A stretch of 64,000 nt of DNA from an uncultured Gammaproteobacteria bacterium (GTDB taxonomy: Bacteria > Patescibacteriota > Microgenomatia > Levybacterales > UBA12049). Below the pieces are notes generated by a model. The model was not told the origin of the DNA. It saw only the letters and a program-made list of their open reading frames with translations, and ran no database searches. The stretch is taken from positions 401,313-465,312 of the forward strand of contig CAZDOJ010000001.1 in assembly GCA_964507055.1 (NCBI GenBank), in the 5' to 3' direction. The position numbers and the translations under genes were made by a program. Positions 7,144 to 64,000 of this stretch are shown here, piece by piece; the first letter of the stretch is position 1, and every line of letters begins with the position of its first letter.

Positions 7144-7167
7144 CCTCCCTCGATGGGAGGTTTTTTT
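7144..7167 (+). terminator. intrinsic terminator (CCTCCC-TCGAT-GGGAGG + T7); a degenerate upstream copy lies at 7101-7140
   Basis: Perfect 6-bp GC-rich stem followed by TTTTTTT, downstream of the gene ending at 7027. Confidence 0.7.
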
Positions 7168-7180
7168 GTGGTTTAAAAGT

Positions 7181-7924
7181 ATGAAAGAATTTGAAATTAG
7201 ATCAAAAGTTATTAATTCTGAAAAGAAGAAATTACCCCAAGTAATGTTTTTAGGTGGGCATACAGATGATGACGCGATGTTTAAGTTGTCGACTGAGCTA
7301 GGTAAAAGAAATATTGGAGTAACGATTGCAACACTTACCAATAGCGATGGCAGAAACCTTCCTCAGTATCAGCCAGAGGAACTTGCACAGGTGCGTTGGG
7401 ATGAAGCAATAAGTTCTGCACAAATGGGTGGGATTACAGAAGTACGCAGGATAGAAATCCAAGACGGTCATTTAGAGAACTATTTACAAGAAGGTATATC
7501 CTTTGCAGGAGATCTAGTTGACGAAGTAAATCCTATTGCGGTTGTGACCCCACATGCATTAGATCCTCATAAAGACCATGAGTCGGCATATAGAATAGGA
7601 TCTGCGATTGTTGGAGTGAGAACGCCTCACTACATGACTGATACAATAACAGGATTTAGTAGACATGGCAAATTACTTACGCCAGATTTTTATATTCCTA
7701 TTTCTGAAGATAGTGCTCAGGCAGAAAAAGCCATCTATTTAGCAAATACTAGTCAGGTTACAGATCTTCCAGATGATGAAATGGCTGATGTCGTGGCAGT
7801 GCTAGAAATGACTGAGCGTAGAGGAAAAACAATCAATGTGCCGCACGCTGCAGTACTATTTGAGGTAAATGTTCAAAAGAGTAATCCGTTATACGAACTT
7901 TTTGAAGATAGGATTGCTGCTTAA
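7181..7924 (+). CDS. PIG-L/LmbE-family deacetylase
   Basis: GGHTDDDAMF (HPDDE-like metal site) and HALDPHKDHES (HxDH) motifs. The start is placed at the ATG at 7181, after the terminator that overlaps the raw ORF start. Confidence 0.55.
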   Translation: MKEFEIRSKVINSEKKKLPQVMFLGGHTDDDAMFKLSTELGKRNIGVTIATLTNSDGRNLPQYQPEELAQVRWDEAISSAQMGGITEVRRIEIQDGHLENYLQEGISFAGDLVDEVNPIAVVTPHALDPHKDHESAYRIGSAIVGVRTPHYMTDTITGFSRHGKLLTPDFYIPISEDSAQAEKAIYLANTSQVTDLPDDEMADVVAVLEMTERRGKTINVPHAAVLFEVNVQKSNPLYELFEDRIAA

Positions 7925-8445
7925 AATACTTCCGGATGAAGAAATCTCCCTAGTGCACAAAATACAGCATCTTCATAAGCTCTTGTTCTCGTAATCGCAT
8001 CGTTTGTCATAAGGCCAAAATGACCATTGGCATGTTTAGAATTACTTTTTTTGAAAACAATATCATTTGCATGCCCCATTTCAACTCCACTCAAAATAAT
8101 CTCTAAAATTTTTGGTGGTACAGACATACTAATACTTGATCCCCTCCCCACAACTTGATCTTTATCAACGACTACTGCCCAACCACTAGTGAACCATTCA
8201 TCACCAATTTTTTGCATCCCTCCTTCTATTCCTACACCATAGTCTGCATCCAACTTCTTTAAAGCTCTTTTTGCTCTATTAGTGGAACCACGAATACTTT
8301 GTTTGTCACTCATTGGTTGATCAGGAACTCCGGATAGTACAGAAACTCCTTCTACTTCCCACTTTATTTTAGGAAATATTTTTTCAAAAGCAGATTTTAC
8401 TGCATTAATTTTTGTGGGATTAAGAGAGCCTACTGCGACTTTCAT
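7921..8445 (-). CDS. yjjX: inosine/xanthosine triphosphatase (YjjX/Maf-Ham1-like non-canonical NTPase)
   Basis: The N-terminus MKVAVGSLNPTKINAV, the ~174-aa length and a conserved acidic core are typical of the DUF84/YjjX family. Confidence 0.75.
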   Translation of the reverse strand: MKVAVGSLNPTKINAVKSAFEKIFPKIKWEVEGVSVLSGVPDQPMSDKQSIRGSTNRAKRALKKLDADYGVGIEGGMQKIGDEWFTSGWAVVVDKDQVVGRGSSISMSVPPKILEIILSGVEMGHANDIVFKKSNSKHANGHFGLMTNDAITRTRAYEDAVFCALGRFLHPEVF

Positions 8446-8450
8446 GAAGT

Positions 8451-9101
8451 TTATTTAGCGAGTGCTGCGTCAATTTTTTCTTTGAATTCATTGTATGGAA
8501 GGCCACCTTCTTGTTTCACTCCATTGATGAAAAATGTTGGTGTAGAATTGACTCCGACTGCGTAACCATCGCTTACATCTTTTTCGATTTTCTTAGCATA
8601 CTTCTTTCCTTCAACATCTGATTTGAATTTTGCTTCATCAAGCTTTAACTCTTTTGCATATTGAGTAAATTGGTCCAATGGATTTTTACTGTTTTCCCAT
8701 TCTTTTTGATTAGTGAAGAGCAAGTTATGCATCTCGAAGAACTTACCTTGAGCTCCAGCTGCTTCTGCCGCTTCTGCTGCCATTGGTGCATTTGGATGCA
8801 TAGGCAATGGGAAATTACGGAATACAAAAGTAACTTTCCCTTGATACTCTCTGAGGATTTGTGCAACAACTGGATGAGCAGCACCACATGCAGGACATTG
8901 AAAATCTCCGAATTCTACGATAGTAACCTTGTTTGTTTTTGCACCTTCTACATGGCTATCTGAGCGAACGAGGGCTTCTGTATTTGCGATTGGGGCTGCA
9001 TCTTCCGAAGGACTTTTGCCGCCAACGATGACTGATGCACCGATAACAATTGCTATTGTTGCGATACTTATTCCGATGAGTACTTTTGCTTCGTTAGACA
9101 T
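8451..9101 (-). CDS. DsbA/BdbD-family thiol:disulfide oxidoreductase (membrane anchored)
   Basis: N-terminal TM helix and a thioredoxin-fold CPAC active site (FGDFQCPACGAAHP), with the DsbA-like C-terminus TPTFFINGV. Confidence 0.8.
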   Translation of the reverse strand: MSNEAKVLIGISIATIAIVIGASVIVGGKSPSEDAAPIANTEALVRSDSHVEGAKTNKVTIVEFGDFQCPACGAAHPVVAQILREYQGKVTFVFRNFPLPMHPNAPMAAEAAEAAGAQGKFFEMHNLLFTNQKEWENSKNPLDQFTQYAKELKLDEAKFKSDVEGKKYAKKIEKDVSDGYAVGVNSTPTFFINGVKQEGGLPYNEFKEKIDAALAK

Positions 9102-9103
9102 AT

Positions 9104-9520
9104 CTACTTATGAAATCTTCTATATATTATCATAATCGCTGTAATAAGCGCAAAGGTCAACATTGACAATAAAGGAATTGTGATAAAGCCAAACCATTCA
9201 ATCTGCTTAGTCGTACAAGAGATGCCCTGTGTGCATGGAGCAACACTTTCTGGCAATATACTGTAGTACAAAAGATTATGATAAATAGAGATTCCCAATC
9301 CTACAATGCTTAAAGGTAAGACATAATCAGCAATAGCTTTATCTTTACGAAGAATTGAAACTGCACTTATCGCGATCAACGAATACATACAAATTCTCTG
9401 ATACCAGCAGAGTACGCAAGGAATAAGTTTCATAATCTCACTAAAATAAAGACTAATTAATGTCGCGGCAAGTGCAATGAGGAATGTTGCATATGGTATG
9501 TATTTGACGTACTTCTTCAT
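9104..9520 (-). CDS. disulfide bond formation protein B (DsbB/BdbC family)
   Basis: 4-TM membrane protein with the Cys pairs PCVLCWYQRICMY and CTQGISC, lying in an operon with the DsbA-like gene. Confidence 0.75.
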   Translation of the reverse strand: MKKYVKYIPYATFLIALAATLISLYFSEIMKLIPCVLCWYQRICMYSLIAISAVSILRKDKAIADYVLPLSIVGLGISIYHNLLYYSILPESVAPCTQGISCTTKQIEWFGFITIPLLSMLTFALITAIMIIYRRFHK

Positions 9521-9539
9521 CAGATTAATTATAGCAAAG

Positions 9540-9761
9540 TTATTTTACTTTTGTGAGCAATTTATAGACATTGTACATTCCGCCAAAAAATCCAATGACT
9601 CCCCCACCGATTAAAAGAATATGACCTGTATTAAATACAGTATCAAAAAAGAAGCCAGCACCCATGAGAATAATAACGGGAGTCACAAGAAGAATAGCTG
9701 TACTCATACCGACCAAAGTGAAATATACAATTTTTGATTTCTTTTTTGTTTGCTGTTCCAT
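9540..9761 (-). CDS. small two-TM membrane protein
   Basis: 73-aa ORF with two hydrophobic helices and a Gly-rich second helix (GGGVIGFFGGMY). No assignable family. Confidence 0.4.
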   Translation of the reverse strand: MEQQTKKKSKIVYFTLVGMSTAILLVTPVIILMGAGFFFDTVFNTGHILLIGGGVIGFFGGMYNVYKLLTKVK

Positions 9762-9799
9762 AATTTGATTCTAGTTAATTTAGACTGGGGAAACTAGTA

Positions 9800-11074
9800 T
9801 CAATATAAAATTCTAAATCGAATTGTATGTGGAATTGTTTTAAGTACTTTAAATACTTTTTTTTCATATGCCTTATCAACATCAATAATGACATATCCGT
9901 GACTTTCGTTTGTTTTTAAATATTGAGCTAAGACATTTATTTTATGATCAGCAAGAATCTTATTAATTTGAGCAAGCATTCCAGGGACATTTTTATGAAT
10001 ATGCAATAGTCGATGAGAATTTTTATATTGTGGCAAAGAAAGATTTGGTAGTGTTAATGATTGTGAAGTGCTACCTGAATTGATATATGAAACAATTTTT
10101 TGAGCAATATTCTTTTTTGCAAAAACCGCAATTCCATCTGCATGCAATTGATCGATTTGCATTACAGACTGAGAATATAATCCGACAGCAAGTGTTCGAT
10201 GTATATGCTCAAGCAACGGTAAAGTTTTTTCATCAACACAAATGATTGATGTATTATGAATATTCTCAATGGAATCAGTAATGATGTATCCTTCATTTTC
10301 AAAAACTATCCGATCTTCTTGAGGTATTGTTGCTAACAATAAAACATTAATTCGATTCTTGGGATATGAAAGCGATCTTGGAAGTTTATTTTCAAAAAGA
10401 AATTCATCAAAATTAGGAGCTATCTCATCAGCATGCTTTACAACGAGTGAGCGAGATATATTTTCTGTAAAGGCAATAAATTTTTTCGCGAGACCCAATT
10501 TTTTAAGCTCATAATCAGTGTAACCATCCCCTATTATATAGAGGTCATTTAGTAACTTAAGTGAACGAACAACTTTTACTTTTCCTTGGTTTTTACTCAT
10601 GAGGTTGGTTGCATCAACGCCAATTACATTTCCATTATTGTCGTAGGTAAACGTGTTTGCAAAAACATTTTTGTCAGGAATTTCAAAACTTTCAATCACG
10701 GGGAGAATCAATTCTTTAAAGCCTCCTGAGATAATATAAATATTATTTTTATGTTGTTGAAAGAAGTCTTTATTGCGAAGTATGGACTTAGAAATATTTT
10801 TTTTCAATTGCATAGCAGCTTTATTAATAAAAGCTCTATTACTTTGTAATAGCTCCACCCTCTCCTGCAAACTTTTCTCAAATGGCATTTTTCCATTCAT
10901 TCCTAATTGCGTTAAATGCTTAATTTCTTCAACTATCTTTTCTTTTTGCGAGTGGTTTACAAGTGATATTTCCGCAAGGACATCAAGTCCTTCACTTTGT
11001 ATAAATGTACTATCAAAATCGATAAGATAGCTTACTGGTTTCTTGTTCTGCATTGGCATTATTATACTCTTCAT
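9800..11074 (-). CDS. serB: phosphoserine phosphatase (HAD) fused to a SerA-type C-terminal ACT regulatory domain
   Basis: HAD motif I LIDFDSTFIQSEGLD and motif IV IGDGYTDYE match SerB. The C-terminal ~90 aa (HRLLHIHKNVPGMLAQINKILADHKINVLAQYLKTNESHGYVIIDVD...TIPHTIRFRILY) closely mirrors the ACT domain of D-3-phosphoglycerate dehydrogenase. The start is chosen at the ATG at 11074; the raw ORF runs to 11116. Confidence 0.7.
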   Translation of the reverse strand: MKSIIMPMQNKKPVSYLIDFDSTFIQSEGLDVLAEISLVNHSQKEKIVEEIKHLTQLGMNGKMPFEKSLQERVELLQSNRAFINKAAMQLKKNISKSILRNKDFFQQHKNNIYIISGGFKELILPVIESFEIPDKNVFANTFTYDNNGNVIGVDATNLMSKNQGKVKVVRSLKLLNDLYIIGDGYTDYELKKLGLAKKFIAFTENISRSLVVKHADEIAPNFDEFLFENKLPRSLSYPKNRINVLLLATIPQEDRIVFENEGYIITDSIENIHNTSIICVDEKTLPLLEHIHRTLAVGLYSQSVMQIDQLHADGIAVFAKKNIAQKIVSYINSGSTSQSLTLPNLSLPQYKNSHRLLHIHKNVPGMLAQINKILADHKINVLAQYLKTNESHGYVIIDVDKAYEKKVFKVLKTIPHTIRFRILY

Positions 11075-12239: not shown

Positions 12240-12618
12240 TAGATCTGTTACAAGGTTATACGGGTTACGTAAAGATTAATCAGACGCTGACCGCACACGG
12301 AGGCATCTATTCGTTATTAGGCTAAATACCTAATAAGGAACAGGTGTCTTTTTTTGTACGAATTTTTAGTAAATCTGATTAATTAATAAAGTTAAACTTT
12401 TAGGGTTTGTTACAAAATATCATGAAAAGAAACTATTCTTTAGCAAATTTTGCTGTACGATCAAATGAATCAAACCGTTTGGAAATAACGGAGATGTTTG
12501 CGTCTAAATAATTAGATGTGAGCATTTCCGTTTTTTTGGTCTTAGGGCTCAATCAGGCGGGATGAAGTGTTCCGATACAATCGGAGAACATTTATCAGGA
12601 AAGGAGGTGACAATATAT

Positions 12619-13866
12619 ATGACATACACAAAACGTATTACAACAGCTATCGCAACGGGCGCAGTCTTAGTCAATGCTTTAGCACCTGTCGCGTTCGCGC
12701 AGGAAGTAACTGTTAGTGGAAACGGTGCATTCTCAGATAGTGCAGTTAATGTTTCTAACAACAGTAGTACATCAGTTAACCAGACAAATAATGCTAATGT
12801 CGTGAACAAAGTTTCATCAAACGCAAACTCAGGTGGTAACTCTTCAAAGTTCAACACAGGAGGTTCAACAAACATTACAACTGGTAAAGCCGTAACAGAT
12901 ACAACAGTAAGTAATTCACTTAACTTGAACAGTGCAAGTGTAGCTAACTGTGGTACATGTACCGGTGGAGCTGATGTTACAGTCCAAGGTAACGGAGCCT
13001 ATTCTGACAATGGTGTCAGTCTTAACAATAATAAATCCGTAAGTTTGAACCAAAATAATAATGCTAATGTCAAAAATTTCATTGAAACTAATGCAAATTC
13101 AGGAAAGAACGATTCAAAGTTCAACACTGGTGGCAATAACTCTATTAATACAGGATTAGCAGGATCAGTCGTTAATGTTACAACAAATGCAAACGCAAAT
13201 GTTGCCACAATCGGCGGCGGTAATGGTAGTCTTGGTGGTTCAAGTGTTGTCATCGGTGGCCCTAGTGCAACTGATGGTAACGGAGCATTCAGTGATAATG
13301 GTGTAGCTTTGAATGGAAATTCAGCAGTTGTTCTTTCACAAGACAACTCAGCATACATCAAAAATATCGTTGATGCTAACTCCAACTCAGGTAAAAACGA
13401 CTCAAAGTTTAATACTGCTGGCGACAATAGTATTACAGCTGGACAAGCAATAACAGAAGTATCAGTAGATAATGCTGCAAACTTCAACTTTGCTTCAGTC
13501 GATTGTGACTGTGTTCTTGGAGATGATCTAGCGGTAACAATCGAAGGTAATGGTGCTAAATCTCTTAACGAGGTTGGTGCTTCATTAAACCACGCATTGG
13601 TAAACGCACAAGATAATAACGCTCATCTTTGGAATGAGGTTGATGGAAATGCTAAATCTGGTCACAACGACTCAGCATTTGGTACAGGTGGAGATAACGA
13701 TGTTACTGCAGGAGATTCATACTCAACTACAGCCGTTAACAACGCTGGTAACGCTAACTTCTTTAACAATGGTGATAGTATCGATCTTCCAGGAAATTGG
13801 GAAATGGACGTAGATTTTGATTTTTCTGATCTATGGTTAAGTCTCAACCACTGGTTAGTAGCGTAA
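12619..13866 (+). CDS. secreted Asn/Gly/Thr-rich repeat protein (four ~58-aa repeats)
   Basis: Strong RBS AAGGAGGTGA 8 nt upstream of the ATG at 12619, and a signal peptide MTYTKRITTAIATGAVLVNALAPVAFA. The unit (V/Q)TVxGNGA(F/Y)SDNGVxLNxNxSVxLNQxNNANVxNxxxxNANSGKNDSKFNTGGxNxIxTG occurs four times. The raw ORF starts at 12562. Confidence 0.8.
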   Translation: MTYTKRITTAIATGAVLVNALAPVAFAQEVTVSGNGAFSDSAVNVSNNSSTSVNQTNNANVVNKVSSNANSGGNSSKFNTGGSTNITTGKAVTDTTVSNSLNLNSASVANCGTCTGGADVTVQGNGAYSDNGVSLNNNKSVSLNQNNNANVKNFIETNANSGKNDSKFNTGGNNSINTGLAGSVVNVTTNANANVATIGGGNGSLGGSSVVIGGPSATDGNGAFSDNGVALNGNSAVVLSQDNSAYIKNIVDANSNSGKNDSKFNTAGDNSITAGQAITEVSVDNAANFNFASVDCDCVLGDDLAVTIEGNGAKSLNEVGASLNHALVNAQDNNAHLWNEVDGNAKSGHNDSAFGTGGDNDVTAGDSYSTTAVNNAGNANFFNNGDSIDLPGNWEMDVDFDFSDLWLSLNHWLVA

Positions 13867-35836: not shown

Positions 35837-38476
35837 TTATTTCTTCGTCTTTAAGTTGGCATCAACCCACAGATTTGGTAAATCATTATTATAAAGAGCA
35901 GTTCCAAACCATGCCCAATTCTGTGTGTAATAACTCTTTGAATCTTCCCAATAACTTCCATCTTTATCTTCATAAAGCTTGTTAAGTACTTTGGTTTCGT
36001 AGATTTCTTTTGCAGCAGATTTATCTGTGACAACAAAGCTTGCGAGGTTTGCAGCATATGCACCAGCGGATTCATAATCTTCCCATGGTTTCCCATCATG
36101 TGTGTATGCAACACTGATCTTTTTATTATTTGCCCATTCTTTTCGCAGAAAGTCATTCTTTGTAAGATAGGACTTTGCTCGAGGTTCTTTGAACCATTGA
36201 TAGTCCAAAGCAATTCTCCATGGTGTACGGAAAGCGTCATAACTATATTCTGTTGAATCCAAACCTTTCTCTGGAGATTTAATAATTTTTCCACTACTAT
36301 CAACTGCACACCAATTTGGTGCAAGTCCAGCTGAAGTTTCTTTGTCTAAGTCGCTATCAGTACATGCATTCAAAACTTCATACGATGTGTCGACCAAACT
36401 CAACCAATTATGGGTTTTATCAATCTCAGCAAAAATCCTGTAACTACTTGGTGCGAGATATGATGGATTGATGATTGCTGTTGATTTTGGCTTCGCCCAA
36501 TCCCCTGCTACGAGATATGGTTTGCTTCGAACTACTTTTACTTCATTCTCCCAGATTGCTTGCATAATCGTCCGTGAATCGATGATGTAACCTGGATTAT
36601 TCCAACGCTTTCCAGCAAAAGCCAATGCTAAGGCAATATCTTCATCACCATCTGCAGCAGAACTTTTATCAATGATTCCCATTGTGCCATCTGGCTTCTT
36701 TCCCCATTTCCAAGCAATCAAATTGTTATCCTTTTGCATATTTCTTTTAGTGAATCCCCATGTCTTATCGAAGAGTTGTTTATCGTTCATCCATACTGCT
36801 CGTAACATGGTATATGATTGTCCTTCTGATGTTGTAGTATTATTTGCTGGATCGACAGTATCTCCATCATCTTTTACAAATGTATTTTTGTATGTTTCCC
36901 ATGTTGAGACAAGAATTCTTCGAGAATTCTTTACGGCCCAGATCTGGACGTACCAACCATCACCTGCGAAACTCGTAATCGGATTTGATTGTGCTAACGC
37001 ATTTCCCGTCATCGGAATTTCACCAGTTCCTAAGTCTCCGCCAATAAGTGGTGTAAATAAGACATAATCAATATTGTTGTAATCATTTTTTAATATCTTT
37101 TCTTTAATATCTTTGTCTCCATCCACTTTCCAATAATATTCAGCATTGGCGAAGTTGCCGTTATTTCTATAGTTCAAATCAAGATATGCATAGTTATCAA
37201 TCGCATAGAATGCATTTGGAGATTGTTTACTCAAAATCCAATTAACAGCTTCTATCTGAGCATTGGTTTCGTTGGATGTGTAGATATTGAAATTACCTGA
37301 ACGGACATTGCCTGAATAATTAAATACAAGTACTCCCATATATATAATGAATGCCATAATAGGAAAAATCGCATAAATTTGAAGCGGCCAGAATTTCATC
37401 CTTGTAAAGAAACTCGCAATTTTATGTGTGACGTACGCAGTTGTTAAAGCAACAAGCGGCACAAGCGGAATGATATAGAATTCAAGTACCAATCCTCCTC
37501 TTAGTAAGAACGCCCAATAAGAAATCGCAAGTCCTGCAATGATACGAGCAGCTACGCTTCTGATAGCAAATATCATTGTAATAATTGTAGATATTGCACC
37601 AACGATCATGAATGACGGATCATCATTTTTCCAGTTCCCTGTCATTTCCCAGAAACTTGAGCCAGGATTGAAGATACTGACGTTTCCGCGACTACCCTGG
37701 AATTGCAGTGTACCAAGTAAACTTACGTGCTCATTATTTCCTCCCAAAAGTGTTCCCGATGGGAAAAATTCGCCTTTAAACATACTAAATATAAAGTACA
37801 GTGAAATAATTGCTCCTGCTACTGCAATCCATTTAATTGCACCAAATAATCGATTGATCTTATGCAATTGAGAATACACAAGAACAGCCATAAATGGGAG
37901 AAAGAAAATCGCACTTTCTTTACTCAGGACTGCGATTCCAAAACTCACCGCACTGGCAATAATCCATCGCAATCTTTGTTTACTAAAGAGTACAAATGTC
38001 ACAGAAAGCAGAAGCCAAAATACCATTATGTTATCCAGCAATACACGTCGTTGGAAATAAATGGCCAGTGGCGAGAGTGAGAACATAAGCACAGCAAATG
38101 CTCCCACAAGCTTAGATCCGGTTATCTTCTTACCAATAAAATACAGTAATAATGCTGATCCGATATGGAGGAGCAGCATCAGTACACGACCAGAGTTAAT
38201 AGCAAACCCAAAGGTAAAAAGACCCCCGGTTATTTTTAACCATAAAGCAATGAGCATCCAACCTACAGGAGCATGATCATACCAATATGTGTACGGTGCA
38301 AGTTTTCCATCATTGATGATCGCCCATGCTTGAGACATGTACGTACCTTCATCAGATTCATAATATGGATAGCCCAACATGTTATATCCATGAGAAATAG
38401 CAGCAATTGCCAAAAGGCCGAATACCAAAAGATATTCCATTTTATGACTAGTAAATAATTCTTTTATCTTTTTCAT
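35837..38476 (-). CDS. fusion of a GT-C (PMT/ArnT-like, GT39/83) membrane glycosyltransferase with a C-terminal glycoside hydrolase family 8-like domain
   Basis: N-terminal half: multiple TM helices with the YYESDEGTY (DE loop) motif and HAPVGW. C-terminal ~400 aa: TTSEGQSYTM (GH8 SEGQSYGM-like) and AADGDEDIALALAFAGKRW (close to the GH8 signature A-[ST]-D-[AG]-D-x2-[IM]-A...). Confidence 0.7.
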   Translation of the reverse strand: MKKIKELFTSHKMEYLLVFGLLAIAAISHGYNMLGYPYYESDEGTYMSQAWAIINDGKLAPYTYWYDHAPVGWMLIALWLKITGGLFTFGFAINSGRVLMLLLHIGSALLLYFIGKKITGSKLVGAFAVLMFSLSPLAIYFQRRVLLDNIMVFWLLLSVTFVLFSKQRLRWIIASAVSFGIAVLSKESAIFFLPFMAVLVYSQLHKINRLFGAIKWIAVAGAIISLYFIFSMFKGEFFPSGTLLGGNNEHVSLLGTLQFQGSRGNVSIFNPGSSFWEMTGNWKNDDPSFMIVGAISTIITMIFAIRSVAARIIAGLAISYWAFLLRGGLVLEFYIIPLVPLVALTTAYVTHKIASFFTRMKFWPLQIYAIFPIMAFIIYMGVLVFNYSGNVRSGNFNIYTSNETNAQIEAVNWILSKQSPNAFYAIDNYAYLDLNYRNNGNFANAEYYWKVDGDKDIKEKILKNDYNNIDYVLFTPLIGGDLGTGEIPMTGNALAQSNPITSFAGDGWYVQIWAVKNSRRILVSTWETYKNTFVKDDGDTVDPANNTTTSEGQSYTMLRAVWMNDKQLFDKTWGFTKRNMQKDNNLIAWKWGKKPDGTMGIIDKSSAADGDEDIALALAFAGKRWNNPGYIIDSRTIMQAIWENEVKVVRSKPYLVAGDWAKPKSTAIINPSYLAPSSYRIFAEIDKTHNWLSLVDTSYEVLNACTDSDLDKETSAGLAPNWCAVDSSGKIIKSPEKGLDSTEYSYDAFRTPWRIALDYQWFKEPRAKSYLTKNDFLRKEWANNKKISVAYTHDGKPWEDYESAGAYAANLASFVVTDKSAAKEIYETKVLNKLYEDKDGSYWEDSKSYYTQNWAWFGTALYNNDLPNLWVDANLKTKK

Positions 38477-41139: not shown

Positions 41140-44100
41140 ATGCAAAATAATCAACAAATGATAAGTGTCGTAGTACCAGTTTATAATGAAATTGGTATCA
41201 TCATGCAATTCCATGAACAATTGCTTTTGACACTTTCTTCTTCTAATCGATCTTATGAGATCATCTATGTTGATGATAATTCTACAGACGGTACTTTCGA
41301 ATGGCTCCAAAGCATCACTAATGACTCTATTAAGGTTGTACGTAAAGTAGGCACAAAAGGTAAGGCATACTCTTTAATGCAAGGGTTTGAAATCGCTCAA
41401 GGCGAAATCCTCGCAATGATTGATGGAGATTTACAATACCCTCCTGCGAAAATTCCTGAGATGGCTGATGCATTGCAAAACGCTGATATTATTGTCGCAA
41501 ATAGAAAAGACTATAAGGACTCAAAAATGAGAAAACTTTTAAGCCGTGGATTTAGAAATATTTTTGGCAAAATGTTATTTGGTCTACAAACAGATATCCA
41601 ATCAGGACTTAAAGTATTTAAGAAAGAAGTTTATGATACTGTCAAATTTCAACCAGTGTCACCTTGGACTTTTGACCTAGAGTTTCTCCACCGAGCAAAG
41701 CAAGCAGGATATACATTAAAGAACGTAGAAATCGTTTTTGCACCACGCCGAAATGGTCAATCAAAAATGAATGTTGTAAAACAATCATACGAGATTGGTG
41801 CGAATGCATTAAATATCAAAATGAAACCTGTCACCTACTTCGCGATAAAACCTGAAGAAGGTACGATGCGTGGTGCAGGTGTACAAGCAAAGAATAAAAA
41901 ATACATTACTCATACAACTCTTCCATCTGCTCTTTCTGCTATTGAAACATTTACTTTTGGACAAAAGGTATTCTTTATCGGAGCACCAATCCTTTTATTA
42001 TTAGCATTCTTCTTAATCCCTTTACAAGCAGCTAGAATCACTGTCGGAGTTTTAAGTGTCCTGTACTTCATTGATGCACTATTCAATATATATGTTGTAG
42101 GAAAAAGTTTGCATAAGGAACAAGAAATTGATGTAACTGATGCAGAACTTGCAACAATTGATGAAGCAACGCTTCCAACATACACTATTCTTTGTCCTTT
42201 ATATAGAGAAGCCCACGTTGTTCCTCAGTTCTTGGAAGGTATTTCAAAAATCGATTGGCCAAAAGAAAAGCTTGATGTGATGTTTCTTCTTGAAGAAGAC
42301 GATAAAGAAACGATTGCAGAGTTTGAAAAAATGAACTTACCATTCTATGCCCGAACTGTTATCGTTCCTGATTCACAACCAAAGACAAAACCAAAGGCTT
42401 GTAACTATGGACTTTCATATGCCAAAGGTGAATACCTCGTTATCTTTGATGCCGAAGATGTACCAGATCCAAGACAGTTGAAAGTTGCATATCTTGGATT
42501 CAAAAAGGCACCAAGTGATGTGAAATGTCTGCAAGCGAAATTGAGTTATTACAACTCACGATATAACGTCTTAACTCGATTCTTTACTGCTGAATATGCA
42601 TTGTGGTTTGACGTCACATTGCCTGGTTTGCAGTCTTTAAACTCAGCACTTCCACTCGGTGGTACAAGTAACCATTTCTTAACTGAAAACTTGCGAGAAC
42701 TTCAAGGTTGGGATCCATTTAACGTGACTGAAGATGCTGACTTGGGTGTACGTTTATTCCAACACGGATATCGTACAGCGGTTATTAAATCAACAACATA
42801 TGAAGAAGCAACAAGTGTACGTAAAGTATGGTTGAAACAACGATCTCGATGGATCAAAGGATACATGCAAACCTATTTGGTACATATGCGAGATTTGCCT
42901 AAATTCGTAAAACAAGTTGGTTTGTGGCACAACTTTATCTTCCAATTAACTGTTGGAGGAAAGATTTTATTTGTCCTTTTGAATCCGTTCATGTGGGTTA
43001 TCACAGCTTTGTACTTCTTAGCAAATCCCGTATTTGGACCAATCATGGAAGCAATTTATCGCCCACCAGTATCATATATTGCGGTCTTCTCATGGATATT
43101 TGGTAACTTTATGTTCTTATATTGTTACATGATCGCTGTCGGTAAACGAAAAGATTGGGATCTTGCAAAGTATGTTCTTTTGATTCCTTTGTACTGGGTA
43201 ATGATGAGTACTGCAGCGATGATCGCGTTATACCAATTGATCTTGAAACCCCACTATTGGGAAAAGACATTGCATGGATTCCATCTTGGTCGAAAGGTTG
43301 AAGATGCCAAAGCACCTGCTCCGACACCAGCACCAATACCAGTTGTACAGCCAGCGTATGCACCAGCTGTAGTAAATAAACCAGGCGTTCAATTACCATC
43401 TCTATCATTCAAGATGCCAGCTATTACAATGCCTACGATCACATTGCCAAATGCCGGTAGTTTGTATGCAAAAGTACTGCATGTATTGCCTATCTTTGCA
43501 TTACTTAATGTCGACTTATTACTTGCTCATGCATTCTTAGCACCAGCTGAAGCACAAACATATTTAGTATTGTCACTTATCGGAAAAGCAAGTTTCATCG
43601 CGAGCCAAGTTGGATCAAATGTTATCGCTGGATTATTATCCCGAGGTAGATCTGCAACAAATCATTTCTTTAAATTAGTATTCTTTACATTCTTATTTAA
43701 CTGGATTGCATATATTGTGCTTGGACTTGAAGGTCAATACTTCATCCCTACCATCTTTGGTACAGGCTATGACGGAATCATCGCATATATGCCATTCTAT
43801 ATGTTTGCATTGCTTTGTTTCGCTATCGCAAACCGATTCAATGCATTCCATTTGCAGAAAAAGAATTATGCATACACAGGAATCTCACTTGCAACTATCT
43901 TAGCATTCGTTCCATTTATCTTAGTAAACAACGAAACAATTTCTGATTACGTTCGAACATTTGCATATCTCGGATCGATCAACTTGTTCTTCGTCGTCGT
44001 AATGCACTTGAGTAATCCATATATCCGAGTCATGGAAAACAACCTCGCAAGTTTTGTTGCTCTCTTTGACAAACAAAAATCTAAAAAAGTTTGGAAAGAC

Positions 44101-45270
44101 AATGGAATGAAAATCCTTATCTTCAACTGGAGAGATACCAAACATATCTATGCAGGAGGTGCTGAAGTATATATCAATGAATTAGCAAAACGATGGGTAA
44201 AAAATGGAAATAAAGTAACACTCTTTAGTGGTAACGATAATAGAAACTTATTCTACGAGAATGTTAATGGAGTTGAAGTATATCGAAGAGGTGGAACATA
44301 CACTGTGTACTTCTTTGCAGTCATGTACTATCTTTTGAAGTTCCGAGGTAAATATGATGTGATCATCGATTGTGAAAATGGTATTCCATTCTTTATGCCA
44401 CTTTTTGCAAAAGAACAAGTAATTTTACTCGTTCACCATGTTCATCAAGAAATCTTCCGAAAGTTCTTGAAGTTCCCGATGAGTATCGTTGCTGAAATGC
44501 TTGAAGGAAAAGTAATGCCATTTATTTACCAAAATAAAAATGTTGTTACTGTCTCCGCATCTTCACAAAGTGAGATATTTAATCTTGGTTTTACTAACTC
44601 CGGTAATATCGCAATTATTCCAAATGGTGTTGATGAGACACTGTACGTTGATTATCCAAAGACTGATCATCCTTCATATGTGTATCTTGGACGATTGAAA
44701 GAATACAAAAATATCGATGTTGCAATCAAAGCATTCTCTAAAGTTTTGAAAGTACATAAGAATGCTACATTATCTATTGTCGGTACAGGAGAAAGTTATT
44801 ACGAACTCAGACAATTAGTTGAAGAACTCGGAGTATCAAACGCTGTGACATTCCATGGTCGAGTAACTGAAAAAGAAAAAGCACGATTGCTTTCCCAAAG
44901 TTGGGCAGCATTGCAGCCATCACAAATGGAAGGCTGGGGAATAACTGTCATCGAAGCGAATGCAACTGGAACTCCAGTTATCGCATCACGAGTTAATGGA
45001 TTACAAGACTCTGTCATCGATAATCAAACAGGTATGCTTGTCCCAGCTGGTGATGTTGCGGCCTTTGCAATTGCGATGAGAAAATTAGCCGACAATGATT
45101 TACTCAGAGTCTCACTTGCAAATGAAGCTCGAAAATGGGCTCAAAACTTTAACTGGGATAAAAGTGCTGAACAGTTCTATACTTTAATTGGACGTAACTT
45201 TGGCCAAGGAGCAATCAGTCCTGCATATACCAATGTGGTTTTCAGTACTGAGAAAGGAGCAAACAATTAA
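41140..45270 (+). CDS. 1376-aa tri-domain glycosyltransferase: DPM1-like GT2 + processive GT2 + multi-TM block + C-terminal GT4
   Basis: Domain 1: VVPVYNE, VDDNSTDGT, DGDLQYPP. Domain 2: FDAEDVPD, VTEDADLG and QRSRWIKG. About 10 TM helices follow. Domain 3 carries the GT4 EX7E motif region EGWGITVIEANATGTPVIASRVNGLQDSV. Confidence 0.85.
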   Translation: MQNNQQMISVVVPVYNEIGIIMQFHEQLLLTLSSSNRSYEIIYVDDNSTDGTFEWLQSITNDSIKVVRKVGTKGKAYSLMQGFEIAQGEILAMIDGDLQYPPAKIPEMADALQNADIIVANRKDYKDSKMRKLLSRGFRNIFGKMLFGLQTDIQSGLKVFKKEVYDTVKFQPVSPWTFDLEFLHRAKQAGYTLKNVEIVFAPRRNGQSKMNVVKQSYEIGANALNIKMKPVTYFAIKPEEGTMRGAGVQAKNKKYITHTTLPSALSAIETFTFGQKVFFIGAPILLLLAFFLIPLQAARITVGVLSVLYFIDALFNIYVVGKSLHKEQEIDVTDAELATIDEATLPTYTILCPLYREAHVVPQFLEGISKIDWPKEKLDVMFLLEEDDKETIAEFEKMNLPFYARTVIVPDSQPKTKPKACNYGLSYAKGEYLVIFDAEDVPDPRQLKVAYLGFKKAPSDVKCLQAKLSYYNSRYNVLTRFFTAEYALWFDVTLPGLQSLNSALPLGGTSNHFLTENLRELQGWDPFNVTEDADLGVRLFQHGYRTAVIKSTTYEEATSVRKVWLKQRSRWIKGYMQTYLVHMRDLPKFVKQVGLWHNFIFQLTVGGKILFVLLNPFMWVITALYFLANPVFGPIMEAIYRPPVSYIAVFSWIFGNFMFLYCYMIAVGKRKDWDLAKYVLLIPLYWVMMSTAAMIALYQLILKPHYWEKTLHGFHLGRKVEDAKAPAPTPAPIPVVQPAYAPAVVNKPGVQLPSLSFKMPAITMPTITLPNAGSLYAKVLHVLPIFALLNVDLLLAHAFLAPAEAQTYLVLSLIGKASFIASQVGSNVIAGLLSRGRSATNHFFKLVFFTFLFNWIAYIVLGLEGQYFIPTIFGTGYDGIIAYMPFYMFALLCFAIANRFNAFHLQKKNYAYTGISLATILAFVPFILVNNETISDYVRTFAYLGSINLFFVVVMHLSNPYIRVMENNLASFVALFDKQKSKKVWKDNGMKILIFNWRDTKHIYAGGAEVYINELAKRWVKNGNKVTLFSGNDNRNLFYENVNGVEVYRRGGTYTVYFFAVMYYLLKFRGKYDVIIDCENGIPFFMPLFAKEQVILLVHHVHQEIFRKFLKFPMSIVAEMLEGKVMPFIYQNKNVVTVSASSQSEIFNLGFTNSGNIAIIPNGVDETLYVDYPKTDHPSYVYLGRLKEYKNIDVAIKAFSKVLKVHKNATLSIVGTGESYYELRQLVEELGVSNAVTFHGRVTEKEKARLLSQSWAALQPSQMEGWGITVIEANATGTPVIASRVNGLQDSVIDNQTGMLVPAGDVAAFAIAMRKLADNDLLRVSLANEARKWAQNFNWDKSAEQFYTLIGRNFGQGAISPAYTNVVFSTEKGANN

Positions 45271-55623: not shown

Positions 55624-56082
55624 ATGAGTTTACTACCCAAAACCATAAGTCTTCTGAGTTTTTTAACACTTCTTTCTTTTATTTTTATTTCACCAGTCCA
55701 GGCACAAACAGCAAATATAACAACTATCCGAGGACAAATACTTGATGATGAGGGACAACCTTTCAAATTTGCAAAAGTTCAAGTTAATTGTGATGGAAAA
55801 ACTCAAAATTCCATTACAAGTGGTCAAGGAAAATATATTGCAATTTTTGCAGGAAATAATTGCGGGATAGGTGATCCAGTAACAGTAACTGCGACAAAGG
55901 ATGGGAAGTCTGGAAGTAGTACAGGAATTGTACAAAATAGAAGAGATGGTCGTATAGTAGATGTGAATTTCTCAGTAGTCAGTTTTAACATTAATGTTCC
56001 TGAATTTGGATTGCTTCCTGGTGCAATTGCAGCTTTGGGTTCAGCTGGTGCATTCCTCGCTATTCGAAGAAGAAAGATCTAA
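55624..56082 (+). CDS. secreted protein with a PEF/PEP-CTERM-like sorting signal
   Basis: Signal peptide; the C-terminus is VPEFGLLPGAIAALGSAGAFLAIRRRKI, i.e. a P-E-F/P motif, a Gly/Ala-rich TM helix and an RRRK tail. Confidence 0.6.
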   Translation: MSLLPKTISLLSFLTLLSFIFISPVQAQTANITTIRGQILDDEGQPFKFAKVQVNCDGKTQNSITSGQGKYIAIFAGNNCGIGDPVTVTATKDGKSGSSTGIVQNRRDGRIVDVNFSVVSFNINVPEFGLLPGAIAALGSAGAFLAIRRRKI

Positions 56083-56088
56083 GAAGCT

Positions 56089-57027
56089 ATGCTTCATGTG
56101 CTCCTCAAAAATAAACTCTTAATAAGACTATTAATATTTTGTATTTCTTTCATCATACTTTCAGGCTGGTATGGTCCTTGGATAATTGGAACGAAGCTTC
56201 TATACTCTTTTTACTTTTTTGTCTATGGAAACTTAGGAAAAGTTCTCTTATTTTCAGTCTTAGCTCTAGCAATAGTTATAGGTAAACGATATAAAGAAAT
56301 AAAAGTGCCGAACTATGATAAGCATGCATTTGTTTTTCTGTTGATAGCATGGATATTAGCTCCTTTGTTCTTTCCAATTGCATCCCTTCTACTTTTAGAA
56401 ATTTCATTTACAAGTAATCTTCCTTTAAGTATTCTTGCTCATTCTTTTATTATTGTAATACCTTTCCTCCTTGCTTTAGGTATATTTGGAATTAAATTTT
56501 GGATAAACTTTCTTAATATTTTTAAGAAAGAAATATATTTATGTGCAGGACTCGCATTATTCTTTTATTTCATGATTTTTTATATATGGACTTTTTGGCC
56601 TTATTTTAGTGATATTGTTTTAAGAAGTGTTCAATTTTTATTTAGTTTAAGTTTTGATAATGTAGTAGTTTTCGAACCTCGAACACTTTTTGTTGAATCA
56701 TTTGCTGTAACAATTGATCAAGCGTGTTCAGGACTAGAGTCTTTTCTACTATTTACTGGATTATGTAGTTTAATTGCTTATGTAGATCGTAGAAAAATTA
56801 ATTGGAAAAAGTTTATCATGTTCTATTTATTTGGCATTTTAGGAACATTTCTGGTAAATATACTACGTGTATACGGAATTATATGGGCTGGACTAATATT
56901 TTCCCCACAAATAGCAGCAGAACTTTTTCATACCTATCTTGGAATGATTTTCTTCCTTCTCTACTTCGTTTTTATCGTAAAGTATTTTTATAAGTACGTT
57001 ATTAATGAAAAGAATAAAAACATATAA
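56089..57027 (+). CDS. exosortase/archaeosortase-family membrane transpeptidase (putative)
   Basis: Eight or so TM helices with IDQACSGLESFLLFTG (conserved Cys-Ser-Gly) and NILRVYGI (Asn-x-x-Arg), placed as in EpsH/ArtA. The gene starts 7 nt after the PEF-CTERM gene. Confidence 0.6.
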   Translation: MLHVLLKNKLLIRLLIFCISFIILSGWYGPWIIGTKLLYSFYFFVYGNLGKVLLFSVLALAIVIGKRYKEIKVPNYDKHAFVFLLIAWILAPLFFPIASLLLLEISFTSNLPLSILAHSFIIVIPFLLALGIFGIKFWINFLNIFKKEIYLCAGLALFFYFMIFYIWTFWPYFSDIVLRSVQFLFSLSFDNVVVFEPRTLFVESFAVTIDQACSGLESFLLFTGLCSLIAYVDRRKINWKKFIMFYLFGILGTFLVNILRVYGIIWAGLIFSPQIAAELFHTYLGMIFFLLYFVFIVKYFYKYVINEKNKNI

Positions 57028-58066
57028 CTCCACAGTTGACCTAATAAGAGCGATAGCAATTATCTTTGTACTTGTAGTGCATGTTTTTAGTGAAATTCTA
57101 ACAAAAACTTCTCCTAATGCGTTGGATTGGCTTATTGCAACATTTTTTGTAACTTTTGGAAAAGTAGCTGTACCCCTTTTTATTATGCTGAGTGGATTTC
57201 TTCTACTTGAAGAACAAAAGAAATACACAATTAGCGAATTCTATAAGAAAAGAATACTTAGAATAGGTTTACCTTTACTTTTTTGGCCCTTTTTTTATTA
57301 TTTGGCCTATATAATTTTTAGCCCTAAGGAATTTAATTGGACGCTTTTTTTTAATGATTATATATTCCTCAATATGTACTATCACTTATACTTTCTTTTT
57401 ATAATCCTGGGCTTGTATTTTATTACCCCAATATTAAAGCCCTTTATTAATTCGTTAAATCTAGCGGAGAAAAAAATAACTATATGCTTAATGCTTCTAT
57501 TTTCTCTTATTATCACGAGTATTCATTACTATGCCCCAACACGGTTAAATTTTTGGACAATATTTACAGTATTCATTCCGTACATTTCTTTTTATGCGGC
57601 AGGCAACTATTTAAAATATATAAAAATATCTAAGAGGACACTAATTAATCTTCTACTATTTTCAGTAATTATTGTTTTAGTTACAGTATTTGCTAAATAT
57701 TTAATGCAAATATATATATATAGTAATTGGATTAACCAATACCCTGCAGATGGGCTAAGCATATTTGTTCTACCGTTATCTATACTTTCTTTTATTATAT
57801 TATTTAATGCTGAAAGAAACAGTAAAAATTTCTCAAACTTAGCAAAAAGTGGCCTTATTCGCAAACTTGCAGTAGCATCTTTTGGGATATATCTTATTCA
57901 TCCACTTTTTCTATATTTAATTAATAAATATACCTTAAATATTCATTTAAACGGACTATTATTAATATTATATTTATTTGTTAAAATTGTTATATTACTT
58001 ATACTTTCTTATTTATTTACATATATCCTAAGTAAAATACCAGTATTGAAGAAACTCATTTCATAG
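57005..58066 (+). CDS. acyltransferase-3 family membrane O-acyltransferase
   Basis: VDLIRAIAIIFVLVVHVF and about 10 TM helices; the OatA/WecH-like fold is commonly found in glycan clusters. Confidence 0.75.
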   Translation: MKRIKTYNSTVDLIRAIAIIFVLVVHVFSEILTKTSPNALDWLIATFFVTFGKVAVPLFIMLSGFLLLEEQKKYTISEFYKKRILRIGLPLLFWPFFYYLAYIIFSPKEFNWTLFFNDYIFLNMYYHLYFLFIILGLYFITPILKPFINSLNLAEKKITICLMLLFSLIITSIHYYAPTRLNFWTIFTVFIPYISFYAAGNYLKYIKISKRTLINLLLFSVIIVLVTVFAKYLMQIYIYSNWINQYPADGLSIFVLPLSILSFIILFNAERNSKNFSNLAKSGLIRKLAVASFGIYLIHPLFLYLINKYTLNIHLNGLLLILYLFVKIVILLILSYLFTYILSKIPVLKKLIS

Positions 58067-58133
58067 ATTTAGATTTTACAATCTTCCTAAATTCTTATTA
58101 AGCTGTTATTATATCTATTCTCAAACTGAACCT

Positions 58134-59393
58134 ATGATTAAAGTAAAAAAAATTATAAATAAATTCTATAATGACTCTTTATACAGAAATTCTATATTTC
58201 TAATGCTTACCACGTTTACAGGTGCACTTGCTGGAATGCTTTTCTGGACAATCAACACGAAATTATATACTCCAGAGGAAGTAGGAATTGCCACAGCAAT
58301 GATATCTTCTATGACTCTAATAACTGGGTTTAGCATGCTAGGATTAAATGTTGGGATTATTAGGTATCTGCCCAAGGCTAAAAATAAATCTGAAAATATA
58401 AATACTGTAATAACTACAGTACTTCTTTCTTCTTCTTTAATTTCATTGGTATTTCTATTAGGTCTAAATTATTTCTCTCCAAAGCTAGCATTTCTTCAAC
58501 AAAATTATATCTTTTTCATTATTTTTATCTTACTCGCTGTTATATTATCCATTGATAACATATTTAGTAATACTTTTATTGCAACTCGTAACTCTAAATA
58601 TGTATTTTATAAAAGCATTTTAGGCAATATTTTAAAAATACTTGCTCCCTTTGCACTTATTGGATTAGGTTCATATGCAATATATTTGTCATCTTCTTTA
58701 TCGTTTGTAGTAGCATTTATACTAGGCATTATAATTTTATATAAAACATTAAATTATAAAATAAGGTTCGCAATTAATAAAAATATACTTAAAAACATGT
58801 TTAAGTTATCATTTACCAATTACATTGCATCATTTTTAGCAAGCCTACCTTTGTCATTACTTCCGATTCTTATTGTTAATCAGCTTGGAAGTAAAGAAGC
58901 TGGCATATTCTATTTGGATTTAATGATAATCAACTTACTCAATACTATACAGTCATCAATAGGACAATCTTTATTTGCAGAAGGAAGTAATGATATAAAA
59001 GATTTGAAGAAACATGTATTAAAGGCAGTTAAATTTATCATATTAATCCTTGTCCCTGCAATATTAATTACGATATTTTTGGGACAATATATATTACTTA
59101 TTTTTGGAAAAGTTTACTCTGATGAAGGTATCTATCTTTTAAGATTATTGGCGATTTCTGTAATATTTACTTCTATTAATGGATTATTGAGTGCCATATT
59201 GAATATTAAAGCGAAGGTCAATCTTATATTGATAATGTGCATAATTGGCCCTATAATTCTACTTACGTTTATTTACTTTTTACTTCCGAGTGGGTTAATA
59301 GCATTAGGCTATGCATGGCTATTTGGAGAAGCTTTGATTTCGATTATATATATGAGTATGGTATACTTTAAAATTGTTAGAATAAAAACATGA
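58134..59393 (+). CDS. Wzx-like polysaccharide flippase (MOP superfamily)
   Basis: About 12 TM helices and the N-terminal N/K-rich helix-loop typical of Wzx. It lies in an operon with glycosyltransferases. Confidence 0.65.
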   Translation: MIKVKKIINKFYNDSLYRNSIFLMLTTFTGALAGMLFWTINTKLYTPEEVGIATAMISSMTLITGFSMLGLNVGIIRYLPKAKNKSENINTVITTVLLSSSLISLVFLLGLNYFSPKLAFLQQNYIFFIIFILLAVILSIDNIFSNTFIATRNSKYVFYKSILGNILKILAPFALIGLGSYAIYLSSSLSFVVAFILGIIILYKTLNYKIRFAINKNILKNMFKLSFTNYIASFLASLPLSLLPILIVNQLGSKEAGIFYLDLMIINLLNTIQSSIGQSLFAEGSNDIKDLKKHVLKAVKFIILILVPAILITIFLGQYILLIFGKVYSDEGIYLLRLLAISVIFTSINGLLSAILNIKAKVNLILIMCIIGPIILLTFIYFLLPSGLIALGYAWLFGEALISIIYMSMVYFKIVRIKT

Positions 59394-60295: not shown

Positions 60296-60302
60296 AATTT
60301 TT

Positions 60303-63687: not shown

Positions 63688-64000
63688 TTATATATTTTTG
63701 AGCTCCCATTATTATAAATAACATCTTTATTATCACTTAAAAATCCTTGAGGATATTCATATCTTAAAACATTACCGTTAAAACTTGCATATGTTCTGTT
63801 TTCAACAATATTCGTATAACTAGCATAAACGTATGAATTCTTATAGATGACTTGAGGCAAAATAGTTTTAGTAGTATCTGTCCAAGATGTATATCTTAAC
63901 CTTAAACTTGCATTACCATCAGCAAAAATTGCAGTATTTTTATATCGATGCTTTGCTAACCAATCGCCTGAAACAATTTCAGACTGATGCATATAAAATT
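63684..64000 (-). CDS. hypothetical protein, probably 5'-truncated by the window end
   Basis: The frame is open to the window edge beyond the ATG at 63992. The protein is Tyr/Asn-rich with no motif. Confidence 0.3.
   Translation of the reverse strand, partial: FYMHQSEIVSGDWLAKHRYKNTAIFADGNASLRLRYTSWTDTTKTILPQVIYKNSYVYASYTNIVENRTYASFNGNVLRYEYPQGFLSDNKDVIYNNGSSKIYK

Follow-up and report, generated by a model that had tools for sequence, protein, structure and literature searches.

The gene at positions 9800..11053 on the minus strand of the 64,000-nt stretch of DNA analysed here (the window) encodes a 417-residue protein that consists, in this order, of a phosphoserine phosphatase (PSP), a vestigial substrate-binding domain of the phosphoglycerate dehydrogenase (PGDH) SerA, and a SerA-type ACT domain. 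It descends from a PSP-PGDH fusion of ~630 residues from which the nicotinamide adenine dinucleotide (NAD)-binding domain has been excised, and the adjacent aminotransferase gene, serC, has been lost too. We propose, with a probability of about 0.55, that this PSP would use a recycled pair of SerA ACT domains to sense serine; the origin, anatomy, recurrence and conservation of the architecture are documented below, and it is from these that we infer regulation. Serine-dependent control of the phosphatase is plausible on comparative grounds, and the repeated loss of the same domain in unrelated microbes suggests that the sensor may now serve the phosphatase.

The gene and its product

On the minus strand the open reading frame (ORF) is unbroken from 11116 to 9800. 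Translation probably begins with the ATG at 11053 (MQNKKPVSY), which matches the start position of homologues and gives 417 codons followed by a TGA stop at 9800-9802; alternative starts lie upstream at 11074 (ATG) and 11116 (TTG). These limits come from the ORF list, the sequence itself and comparison with the database protein P0001, to which the 417-residue product is a 100% match. The gene for P0001 occurs in two read-set assemblies that are independent of each other, as well as on a 1,318,932-bp genome contig from NCBI, and because the identical protein comes from independent assemblies an assembly artefact is excluded. The first-pass annotation, which had reported a fusion of PSP with a SerA-type ACT domain at 9800-11074, was therefore right as to the existence of the gene, for which the uninterrupted ORF and the domain searches agree, and as to its end at 9800, but not as to its start, the form beginning at 11074 adding seven residues (MKSIIMP) to that of the homologues. 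Residue numbers below refer to the 417-residue form.

Two domains, HAD and ACT_AHAS_ss, are detected by Pfam. The AlphaFold2 model of the protein has a pLDDT of 91.5 and a pTM of 0.85, and the pLDDT is 89.9 when the alignment is restricted to 21 short homologues.

Excision of the NAD-binding domain from a PSP-PGDH fusion

The nearest relatives fall into two classes. The first comprises proteins of 406-459 residues with an identical architecture, of which the named ones are from Levybacteria (54-62% identical to the window protein) or Roizmanbacteria (clade B, below). The second, a large class, comprises proteins of ~630 residues from Patescibacteria, Ignavibacteria, KSB1 and Bacteroidota, which contain HAD, PF00389, PF02826 and ACT domains and are annotated as phosphoglycerate dehydrogenase. 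These PSP-PGDH fusions share the domain order of the window protein and are 45-60% identical to it over the HAD domain, the connector, both halves of the substrate-binding domain and the ACT domain, and the closest of them, P0013 (632 residues), also shares its gene neighbourhood; the window protein differs from them in having neither the NAD domain of ~205 residues, nor the substrate-binding arginine, nor an adjacent serC. The same segment is missing from all 21 short proteins of the first search, and among GTDB representative genomes the window protein matched a single distant locus, from Marinimicrobia. No description of the PSP-PGDH fusion or of its truncated derivatives was found in the literature, whilst the databases already hold many such proteins, under generic or wrong names.

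The site of the deletion can be placed precisely. In a tblastn search with P0013, residues 1-325 of the query align to window positions 11053-10121 and residues 531-632 to 10108-9803, and from this search, gap mapping and alignment of the junction the scar is the four-codon stretch A312-K-K-N315 (10109..10120, minus strand), which replaces ~205 residues corresponding to P0013 326-530 and E. coli SerA ~104-304. The excised segment carried the GxGxxG motif and the catalytic residues R240, E269 and H292 of E. coli SerA. Consistent with this, the NAD-binding domain PF02826 gives no Pfam match in the window protein, and tblastn found no NAD-domain-like sequence elsewhere in the 64-kb window.

The sequence on either side of the scar retains the anatomy of SerA. 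The HAD domain is followed by a connector (residues 223-233, KLPRSLSYPKN; 10355..10387, minus strand) that is equivalent to SLEKDK at the N-terminus of E. coli SerA, and then by a vestige of the first half of SerA's substrate-binding domain (the N-terminal half; residues 234-311; 10121..10354, minus strand), which aligns with approximately residues 10-103 of E. coli SerA and with residues 234-325 of P0013 (BLASTP, 30% identity, E 9e-8). In this remnant the anion-binding R60 and R62 of E. coli SerA are replaced by D and K. Pfam does not detect PF00389 in the window protein, although the substrate-binding fold is kept in the model, where the remnant forms a five-strand alpha/beta domain with pLDDT ~83-95 even when the alignment contains short proteins only. 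Beyond the scar, residues 316-338 (10040..10108, minus strand) align with E. coli SerA ~305-336, i.e. the C-terminal helix of the substrate-binding domain, modelled as a helix at residues 316-326, and the hinge to the ACT domain. The NAD-binding/catalytic domain of SerA is an insertion within the substrate-binding domain, and for this reason its excision leaves a complete small alpha/beta domain behind.

The earlier description of the ACT domain as being present without the dehydrogenase thus applies to the NAD-binding/catalytic domain, but not to the substrate-binding domain, both halves of which are kept and are collinear with the fusions and with SerA. The same collinearity with P0013 and E. 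coli SerA rules out that the ~105 residues in the middle form a linker or a domain of unrelated origin, and in Foldseek searches the region after the HAD domain matches the SerA/Ser33 family. Overall, the protein scores 133.6 bits against the SerA model NF008759, below the cutoff of 404. As judged from its sequence it is a derivative of the SerA family and not a member, and because the NAD domain, the catalytic triad and R60/R62 are all lacking it is not a phosphoglycerate dehydrogenase.

The phosphatase domain and its predicted substrate

Residues 8-222 (10388..11032, minus strand) form a HAD-IB phosphoserine phosphatase domain, as delineated by Pfam and NCBIfam matches, alignments to PDB entries, Foldseek and invariant columns. 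All four HAD motifs (I-IV: DxDxT; S/T; K; GDxxxD) are present, as DFDST, SGG, GK and GDGYTD, and are invariant across the family, with D12/D14, S109, K158 and D176/D180 the predicted catalytic residues. Alignment to PDB sequences places E21, M52, R65, T179 and R201 at the positions of E29, M52, R65, T182 and R202 of human PSPH, residues which recognise phosphoserine in the PSPH structures; these positions are invariant or nearly so. The NCBIfam model TIGR01488 (HAD-SF-IB) matches residues ~7-200 with 61.9 bits (cutoff 45), whilst the serB equivalog TIGR00338 is matched with 79.4 bits, below its cutoff of 144. In a PDB sequence search the N-terminal half matches the Francisella protein 3kd3 and human PSPH with E values from 5e-25 to 7e-23, and Foldseek superposes the model on 3kd3, 6hyj and 1nnl with TM scores of 0.82-0.85, the C1-type cap fold being present. 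The invariant motifs, the TIGR01488 score and the PSPH fold match bear out the initial assignment of this half to a SerB/PSPH-type phosphatase; by motifs, fold and subfamily score the protein belongs to the HAD-IB PSP group, and phosphoserine hydrolysis is its predicted activity.

A different substrate for the HAD domain, such as another phospho-amino acid, an alcohol phosphate or a protein, in a setting in which the upstream pathway has gone and amino-acid sensing by the ACT domain serves that other reaction, is in our view improbable. The loss of serC and of the dehydrogenase domain at this locus, together with the sub-cutoff score against the serB equivalog, would fit such a change, and there are precedents in the family: proteins annotated as PSP have been proposed on fitness data to be histidinol-phosphate phosphatases (PMC5764234), and the moonlighting mycobacterial enzyme SerB2 affects host cells (PMC4270767). 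Nevertheless, all of the equivalents of the human PSPH phosphoserine contacts are invariant or nearly so in the short proteins, and free-living Pedobacter has proteins of this architecture, which RefSeq and UniRef name HAD-IB or phosphoserine phosphatase.

Human PSPH and the Francisella 3kd3-type enzymes share with the window protein the fold (TM 0.84-0.85, rmsd 2.3-2.5 Å), ~30% identity and all catalytic and substrate-binding residues, but are single-domain enzymes of ~220 residues without a regulatory domain. An exhaustive search of 50%-identity representatives showed such stand-alone PSPs of the same subfamily to be abundant, from which it follows that the ~190 extra residues of the window protein are dispensable for catalysis as such, and that their retention calls for a function.

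The ACT domain and the predicted serine site

The C-terminal residues 339-417 (9803..10039, minus strand) form an ACT domain of SerA type, identified by Pfam, NCBIfam, PDB search, BLASTP and the model. The last 104 residues align to positions 307-410 of the 410 in NF008759 (E 7e-39), the last 103 match the E. coli SerA structures 1psd and 1yba (E ~2e-21), and in a BLASTP comparison the last 197 are 42% identical (63% positives) to E. coli SerA over a stretch of 120 residues (E 9e-29). In E. coli SerA, L-serine is bound by H344 and N346 together with N364 of the neighbouring subunit. These residues, whose numbering was verified against the E. coli sequence, correspond here to H353 (9995-9997), N355 (9989-9991) and N373 (9935-9937), all on the minus strand, which constitute the predicted serine site. 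Both the relationship to the SerA ACT domain that had been proposed from the sequence and the conservation of its serine-contacting residues are accordingly upheld by alignment. In the confident monomer model the domain has the canonical beta-alpha-beta-beta-alpha-beta topology. An ACT domain of generic or SerB2 type was considered and is ruled out, the mycobacterial SerB2 structures aligning to the protein through the HAD domain only.

The serine triad is invariant in 83 of the 83 aligned family members and is kept in 13 of 14 representatives of the short lineages. The remaining representative, P0137, has lost the triad and keeps the ACT domain, indicating that the triad is dispensable for the fold. 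These observations bear on the possibility that the leftover substrate-binding domain and ACT domain are a scaffold for oligomerisation or stability only, with no ligand-dependent regulation. The ACT domains of SerA are known to be a major subunit interface (the 1psd family is among the matches obtained here), the connector and the ACT core are conserved, and P0137 is itself an instance of the domain outlasting its ligand residues. However, those residues are retained in nearly all the short-lineage representatives and in forms with a dead dehydrogenase (below), although the fold can do without them, and the stand-alone PSPs of the subfamily need no such scaffold; we accordingly consider a purely structural role unlikely, and prefer a role for the ACT domains in serine sensing.

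Conservation was compared region by region, as mean pairwise identity, between the clade of short proteins to which the window protein belongs (clade A, below) and the full-length fusions. The values for clade A and the full-length proteins, respectively, are 0.64 and 0.56 for the HAD domain, 0.86 and 0.71 for the connector (with 86% identity in clade A the best-conserved segment of the protein), 0.32 and 0.56 for the N-terminal half of the substrate-binding domain, 0.45 and 0.63 for its C-terminal helix, and 0.65 and 0.66 for the ACT domain. The remnant thus appears to drift under relaxed selection, with the phosphatase and the ACT domain apparently held as tightly as in the bifunctional enzymes. 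That the gene is merely a decaying relic of a dismantled serine operon, without a maintained function, is strongly disfavoured: serC and the catalytic dehydrogenase domain have indeed been lost and the remnant is degenerating, but at least 27 short sequences, diverged to 50-68% identity, keep an unbroken frame, conservation of the HAD and ACT domains equals that in full-length enzymes, the predicted fold is confident, and the architecture has arisen repeatedly and persists in a cluster of 79 proteins from Sphingobacteriaceae.

Recurrent loss of the domain

Relationships within the family were examined with a neighbour-joining tree of 421 shared columns and 100 bootstrap replicates, read as unrooted splits; a midpoint root was set aside as it fell among fast-evolving short sequences. 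Clade A contains 17 short sequences, including that of the window (bootstrap 96), and its sister is P0013 (76), whilst clade B contains three short sequences (98) and has the full-length P0090 as its sister (76); P0089 is a lone short sequence in the tree. Of the 100 replicates, none placed all short proteins in one clade, and 9 grouped A with B. At least 3-5 groups of short forms can thus be distinguished, each of them closer to a full-length protein than to the remaining short groups. Gene order gives the same picture, since each of the two clades is syntenic with its own full-length sister and both are without serC: P0079 (Roizmanbacteria, clade B) is followed by purB, purA and an IMP dehydrogenase (IMPDH) gene, and P0090 by the same string with serC in between, which makes clade B independent of clade A. 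P0089 is encoded on a 290-kb contig that carries archaeal flagellin, proteasome and KH/beta-CASP genes.

The exhaustive search of 50%-identity representatives added six further short lineages, all without the same domain; for most of them a full-length protein is a closer relative than any other short group. One is the 79-member Sphingobacteriaceae cluster, from Pedobacter and Nubsella, whose members are named 'HAD-IB family phosphatase' in RefSeq and 'phosphoserine phosphatase' or 'D-3-phosphoglycerate dehydrogenase' in UniRef. The deletion junctions differ between lineages: clade A has GIAVFAK|KNIAQK, Pedobacter keeps DAKANPRN, P0132 has STAFRVTKN, and P0135 retains extra residues on both sides.

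A possible intermediate stage is provided by six full-length proteins of ~610-630 residues (P0125, P0127, P0129, P0130, P0131 and P0133), in all of which R60 and R240 are replaced. E269 and/or H292 are also replaced in most of them, P0129 keeping both, whereas the glycine of the NAD motif and the ACT triad are retained, except for N346D in P0125. Two loci that encode such dead-residue fusions (L015, 6001-7896, and L016, 6001-7884, in their own coordinates) have no adjacent serC. On the basis of these replacements the six look like pseudo-dehydrogenases, still annotated as D-3-phosphoglycerate dehydrogenase, and the active fusion, the dead fusion and the domain-deleted form are therefore all extant today.

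Two short-protein loci have neighbours of their own interest. In the free-living Bacteroidota species Nubsella zeaxanthinifaciens (L014, 9009-11299) an upstream gene of the NAD-dependent epimerase/short-chain dehydrogenase/reductase (SDR) family ends on the base at which the short PSP-ACT gene begins, and the two look translationally coupled. On an archaeal metagenome contig (L005, 6448-9221) a gene for a 511-residue kinase of the APH family (aminoglycoside/choline/homoserine-kinase-like) is followed, after 18 bp, by that of a short protein, and it is conceivable that the two would form a kinase-phosphatase pair acting on a hydroxy-amino acid.

The gene neighbourhood and the serine pathway

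Downstream of the PSP-ACT gene, and separated from it by a gap of 38 bp (9762..9799), lie genes for an ATPase_gene1-like protein (9540-9761), DsbB (9104-9520), a DsbA-like protein (8451-9101) and NTPase_I-T (7921-8445). All four are on the minus strand, the string (7921-9761) being co-directional with the PSP-ACT gene and kept across the clade; it is used here as a synteny marker and not as evidence of a functional partnership. At the P0013 locus (L004) the fusion gene is followed by a class-V aminotransferase gene (serC, 354 residues), ATPase_gene1, DsbA and NTPase_I-T. The window and three other loci of the short clade (L008, L010 and L011) have the string of L004 minus serC, and the gap of 38 bp marks the position that serC occupies in L004. 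Across window positions 7166-11053 and these four loci, on Microgenomates-like contigs, the full order is PSP(-PGDH), (serC), an ATPase_gene1-like small membrane protein, (DsbB), a DsbA-like thioredoxin, NTPase_I-T and a divergent PIG-L deacetylase, the genes in brackets being variably present.

The statement in the first-pass annotation that no serA gene is present in the window stands, as tblastn over the 64 kb found no serA-like sequence outside the PSP-ACT gene, and it found no serC-like sequence in the window either. None of the best 120 homologues of the sister lineage's SerC is encoded on a contig that has the length of the window genome's 1.32-Mb contig or of any contig encoding a short protein, a weak test that misses divergent enzymes, and at least 20 of them are on contigs with full-length fusions. 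With the adjacent ancestral serC lost, the window enzyme may therefore use phosphoserine from another source.

It is also conceivable, though we think it unlikely, that the pathway is still complete by way of a separate dehydrogenase and aminotransferase encoded elsewhere in the genome, in which case the ACT domain would exert classical end-product control at the last step, along the lines of the first-pass annotation. Such an arrangement is likely for the free-living Pedobacter and Nubsella, in the latter of which the short gene is coupled to a gene of the NAD-dependent SDR/epimerase family as noted above, and the inspection of the window covers 64 kb of a 1.32-Mb genome. The distribution of SerC homologues, with 0 of 120 on contigs of the relevant lengths, speaks against it for the window organism, as does the fact that two Microgenomates clades, independently of each other, lost serC along with the NAD domain.

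The proposed mechanism

The mechanism proposed here starts from an in-frame deletion that removed the NAD-binding/catalytic domain of a PSP-PGDH fusion, the adjacent serC being lost too. Three parts were retained: an intact human-PSPH-like phosphatase, a degenerating substrate-binding domain that may act as a structural adaptor, and an ACT domain whose SerA-type site for L-serine is intact. In the proposed mechanism the ACT domains of two subunits would pair as in SerA, and L-serine, the product of the phosphatase, would bind at their interface through H353 and N355 of one subunit and N373' of its partner. The signal would then reach the phosphatase by way of the rigid remnant and the highly conserved connector, or would shift the oligomeric state, so that an ample supply of serine damps the activity of the phosphatase. 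In a small-genome, Microgenomates-like host the enzyme probably frees serine from phosphoserine that is not made via the classical SerA/SerC route at this locus.

Two known systems provide points of comparison. E. coli SerA (1psd, 1yba, 2p9g) shares with the window protein an ACT domain with its serine ligands and, ahead of it, the final helix of the substrate-binding domain, the N-terminal half of which is collinear with the remnant, whereas the window protein is without the NAD domain and R240/E269/H292, has D/K in place of R60/R62, and carries a phosphatase at its N-terminus; a SerA-like tetramer is unlikely, the NAD-domain interface being gone. Mycobacterial SerB2 (ACT-ACT-PSP; 5is2, 3p96) is similar in principle, in that a HAD PSP is joined to ACT domains. 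However, its ACT domains are a tandem N-terminal pair with no detectable sequence similarity to the single, C-terminal, SerA-derived domain of the window protein, its PSP domain belongs to the other, E. coli SerB-like, subgroup (aligning to the window HAD domain at E ~5e-3), and it has no counterpart of the vestigial dehydrogenase domain through which the window ACT is linked to the phosphatase. In SerB2, L-serine shifts both the oligomeric equilibrium and the activity in an ACT-dependent manner (PMC4270767, PMC10564941).

Several points weigh against serine sensing by this enzyme. The phosphatase scores below the serB equivalog cutoff (79 vs 144 bits), its substrate specificity being deduced from individual residues, and the pairing of the ACT domains, serine binding and coupling to the HAD active site are likewise deductions from sequence. 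The absence of serA and serC covers the locus and the 64 kb of the window, and for the 1.32-Mb contig it extends, weakly, to close orthologues of serC, so that a divergent serC or a separate dehydrogenase may be encoded elsewhere. The phylogeny is distance-based, by neighbour-joining only. Finally, the triad is equally invariant in the full-length fusions, and its conservation in the short forms could be partly inertia, although this is disfavoured because the short forms have diverged to ~50% identity.

In a more tentative extension, to which we give rather less than even odds, the SerA ACT domain and its hollowed-out adaptor would have been co-opted repeatedly, once the dehydrogenase had become dispensable, as an allosteric PSP module, a convergent route from enzyme via pseudoenzyme to regulatory appendage in bacteria of the candidate phyla radiation (CPR), a DPANN-like archaeon and Sphingobacteriaceae, and would gate the release of serine from scavenged or otherwise-made phosphoserine in symbiont-like lineages without SerA/SerC.

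Other features of the window

The remaining genes of the window encode mainly envelope-glycan enzymes, BipA, a deformylase and similar proteins, and Rfam gives no match anywhere in the 64 kb. Positions 12562-13866 (plus strand) encode an Asn/Ser/Gly-rich protein of 434 residues with ~4 internal repeats (GNGAFSD...NNANV.N...NANSG.N.SKFNTGG) and no Pfam match, which looks secreted or surface-located. A single ORF of 1376 residues at 41140-45270 (plus strand) contains two GT2 domains and one GT4/GT1 domain, an unusually large triple glycosyltransferase fusion, and 35837-38476 (minus strand) encodes an 879-residue fusion of a PMT_2-type membrane glycosyltransferase with a family 8 glycoside hydrolase (GH8); L011 has a PMT_2+GH8 gene of similar type in the vicinity of its short PSP-ACT gene. 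The GC content is 0.28-0.30 over positions 56000-64000, compared with 0.36-0.40 elsewhere, and the genes of this region encode an exosortase-like EpsH, Acyl_transf_3, a Polysacc_synt flippase, a GT2 and three GT4 glycosyltransferases; it is a low-GC polysaccharide-synthesis island, possibly acquired horizontally.

Implications

The annotation problem identified here is widespread, in that the same proteins are called D-3-phosphoglycerate dehydrogenase, HAD-IB phosphatase or phosphoserine phosphatase, and it bears on whether Patescibacteria and Bacteroidota are predicted to be serine prototrophs. The existence of these proteins also prompts one to ask what the source of phosphoserine is in symbionts with reduced genomes. 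As a 417-residue protein, the enzyme described here is a simple and testable system in which to study how a pair of ACT domains may signal serine to an unrelated catalytic domain. With all stages extant, the family would provide a clean and datable example of a regulatory domain that has outlived its enzyme and been re-used by its fusion partner.

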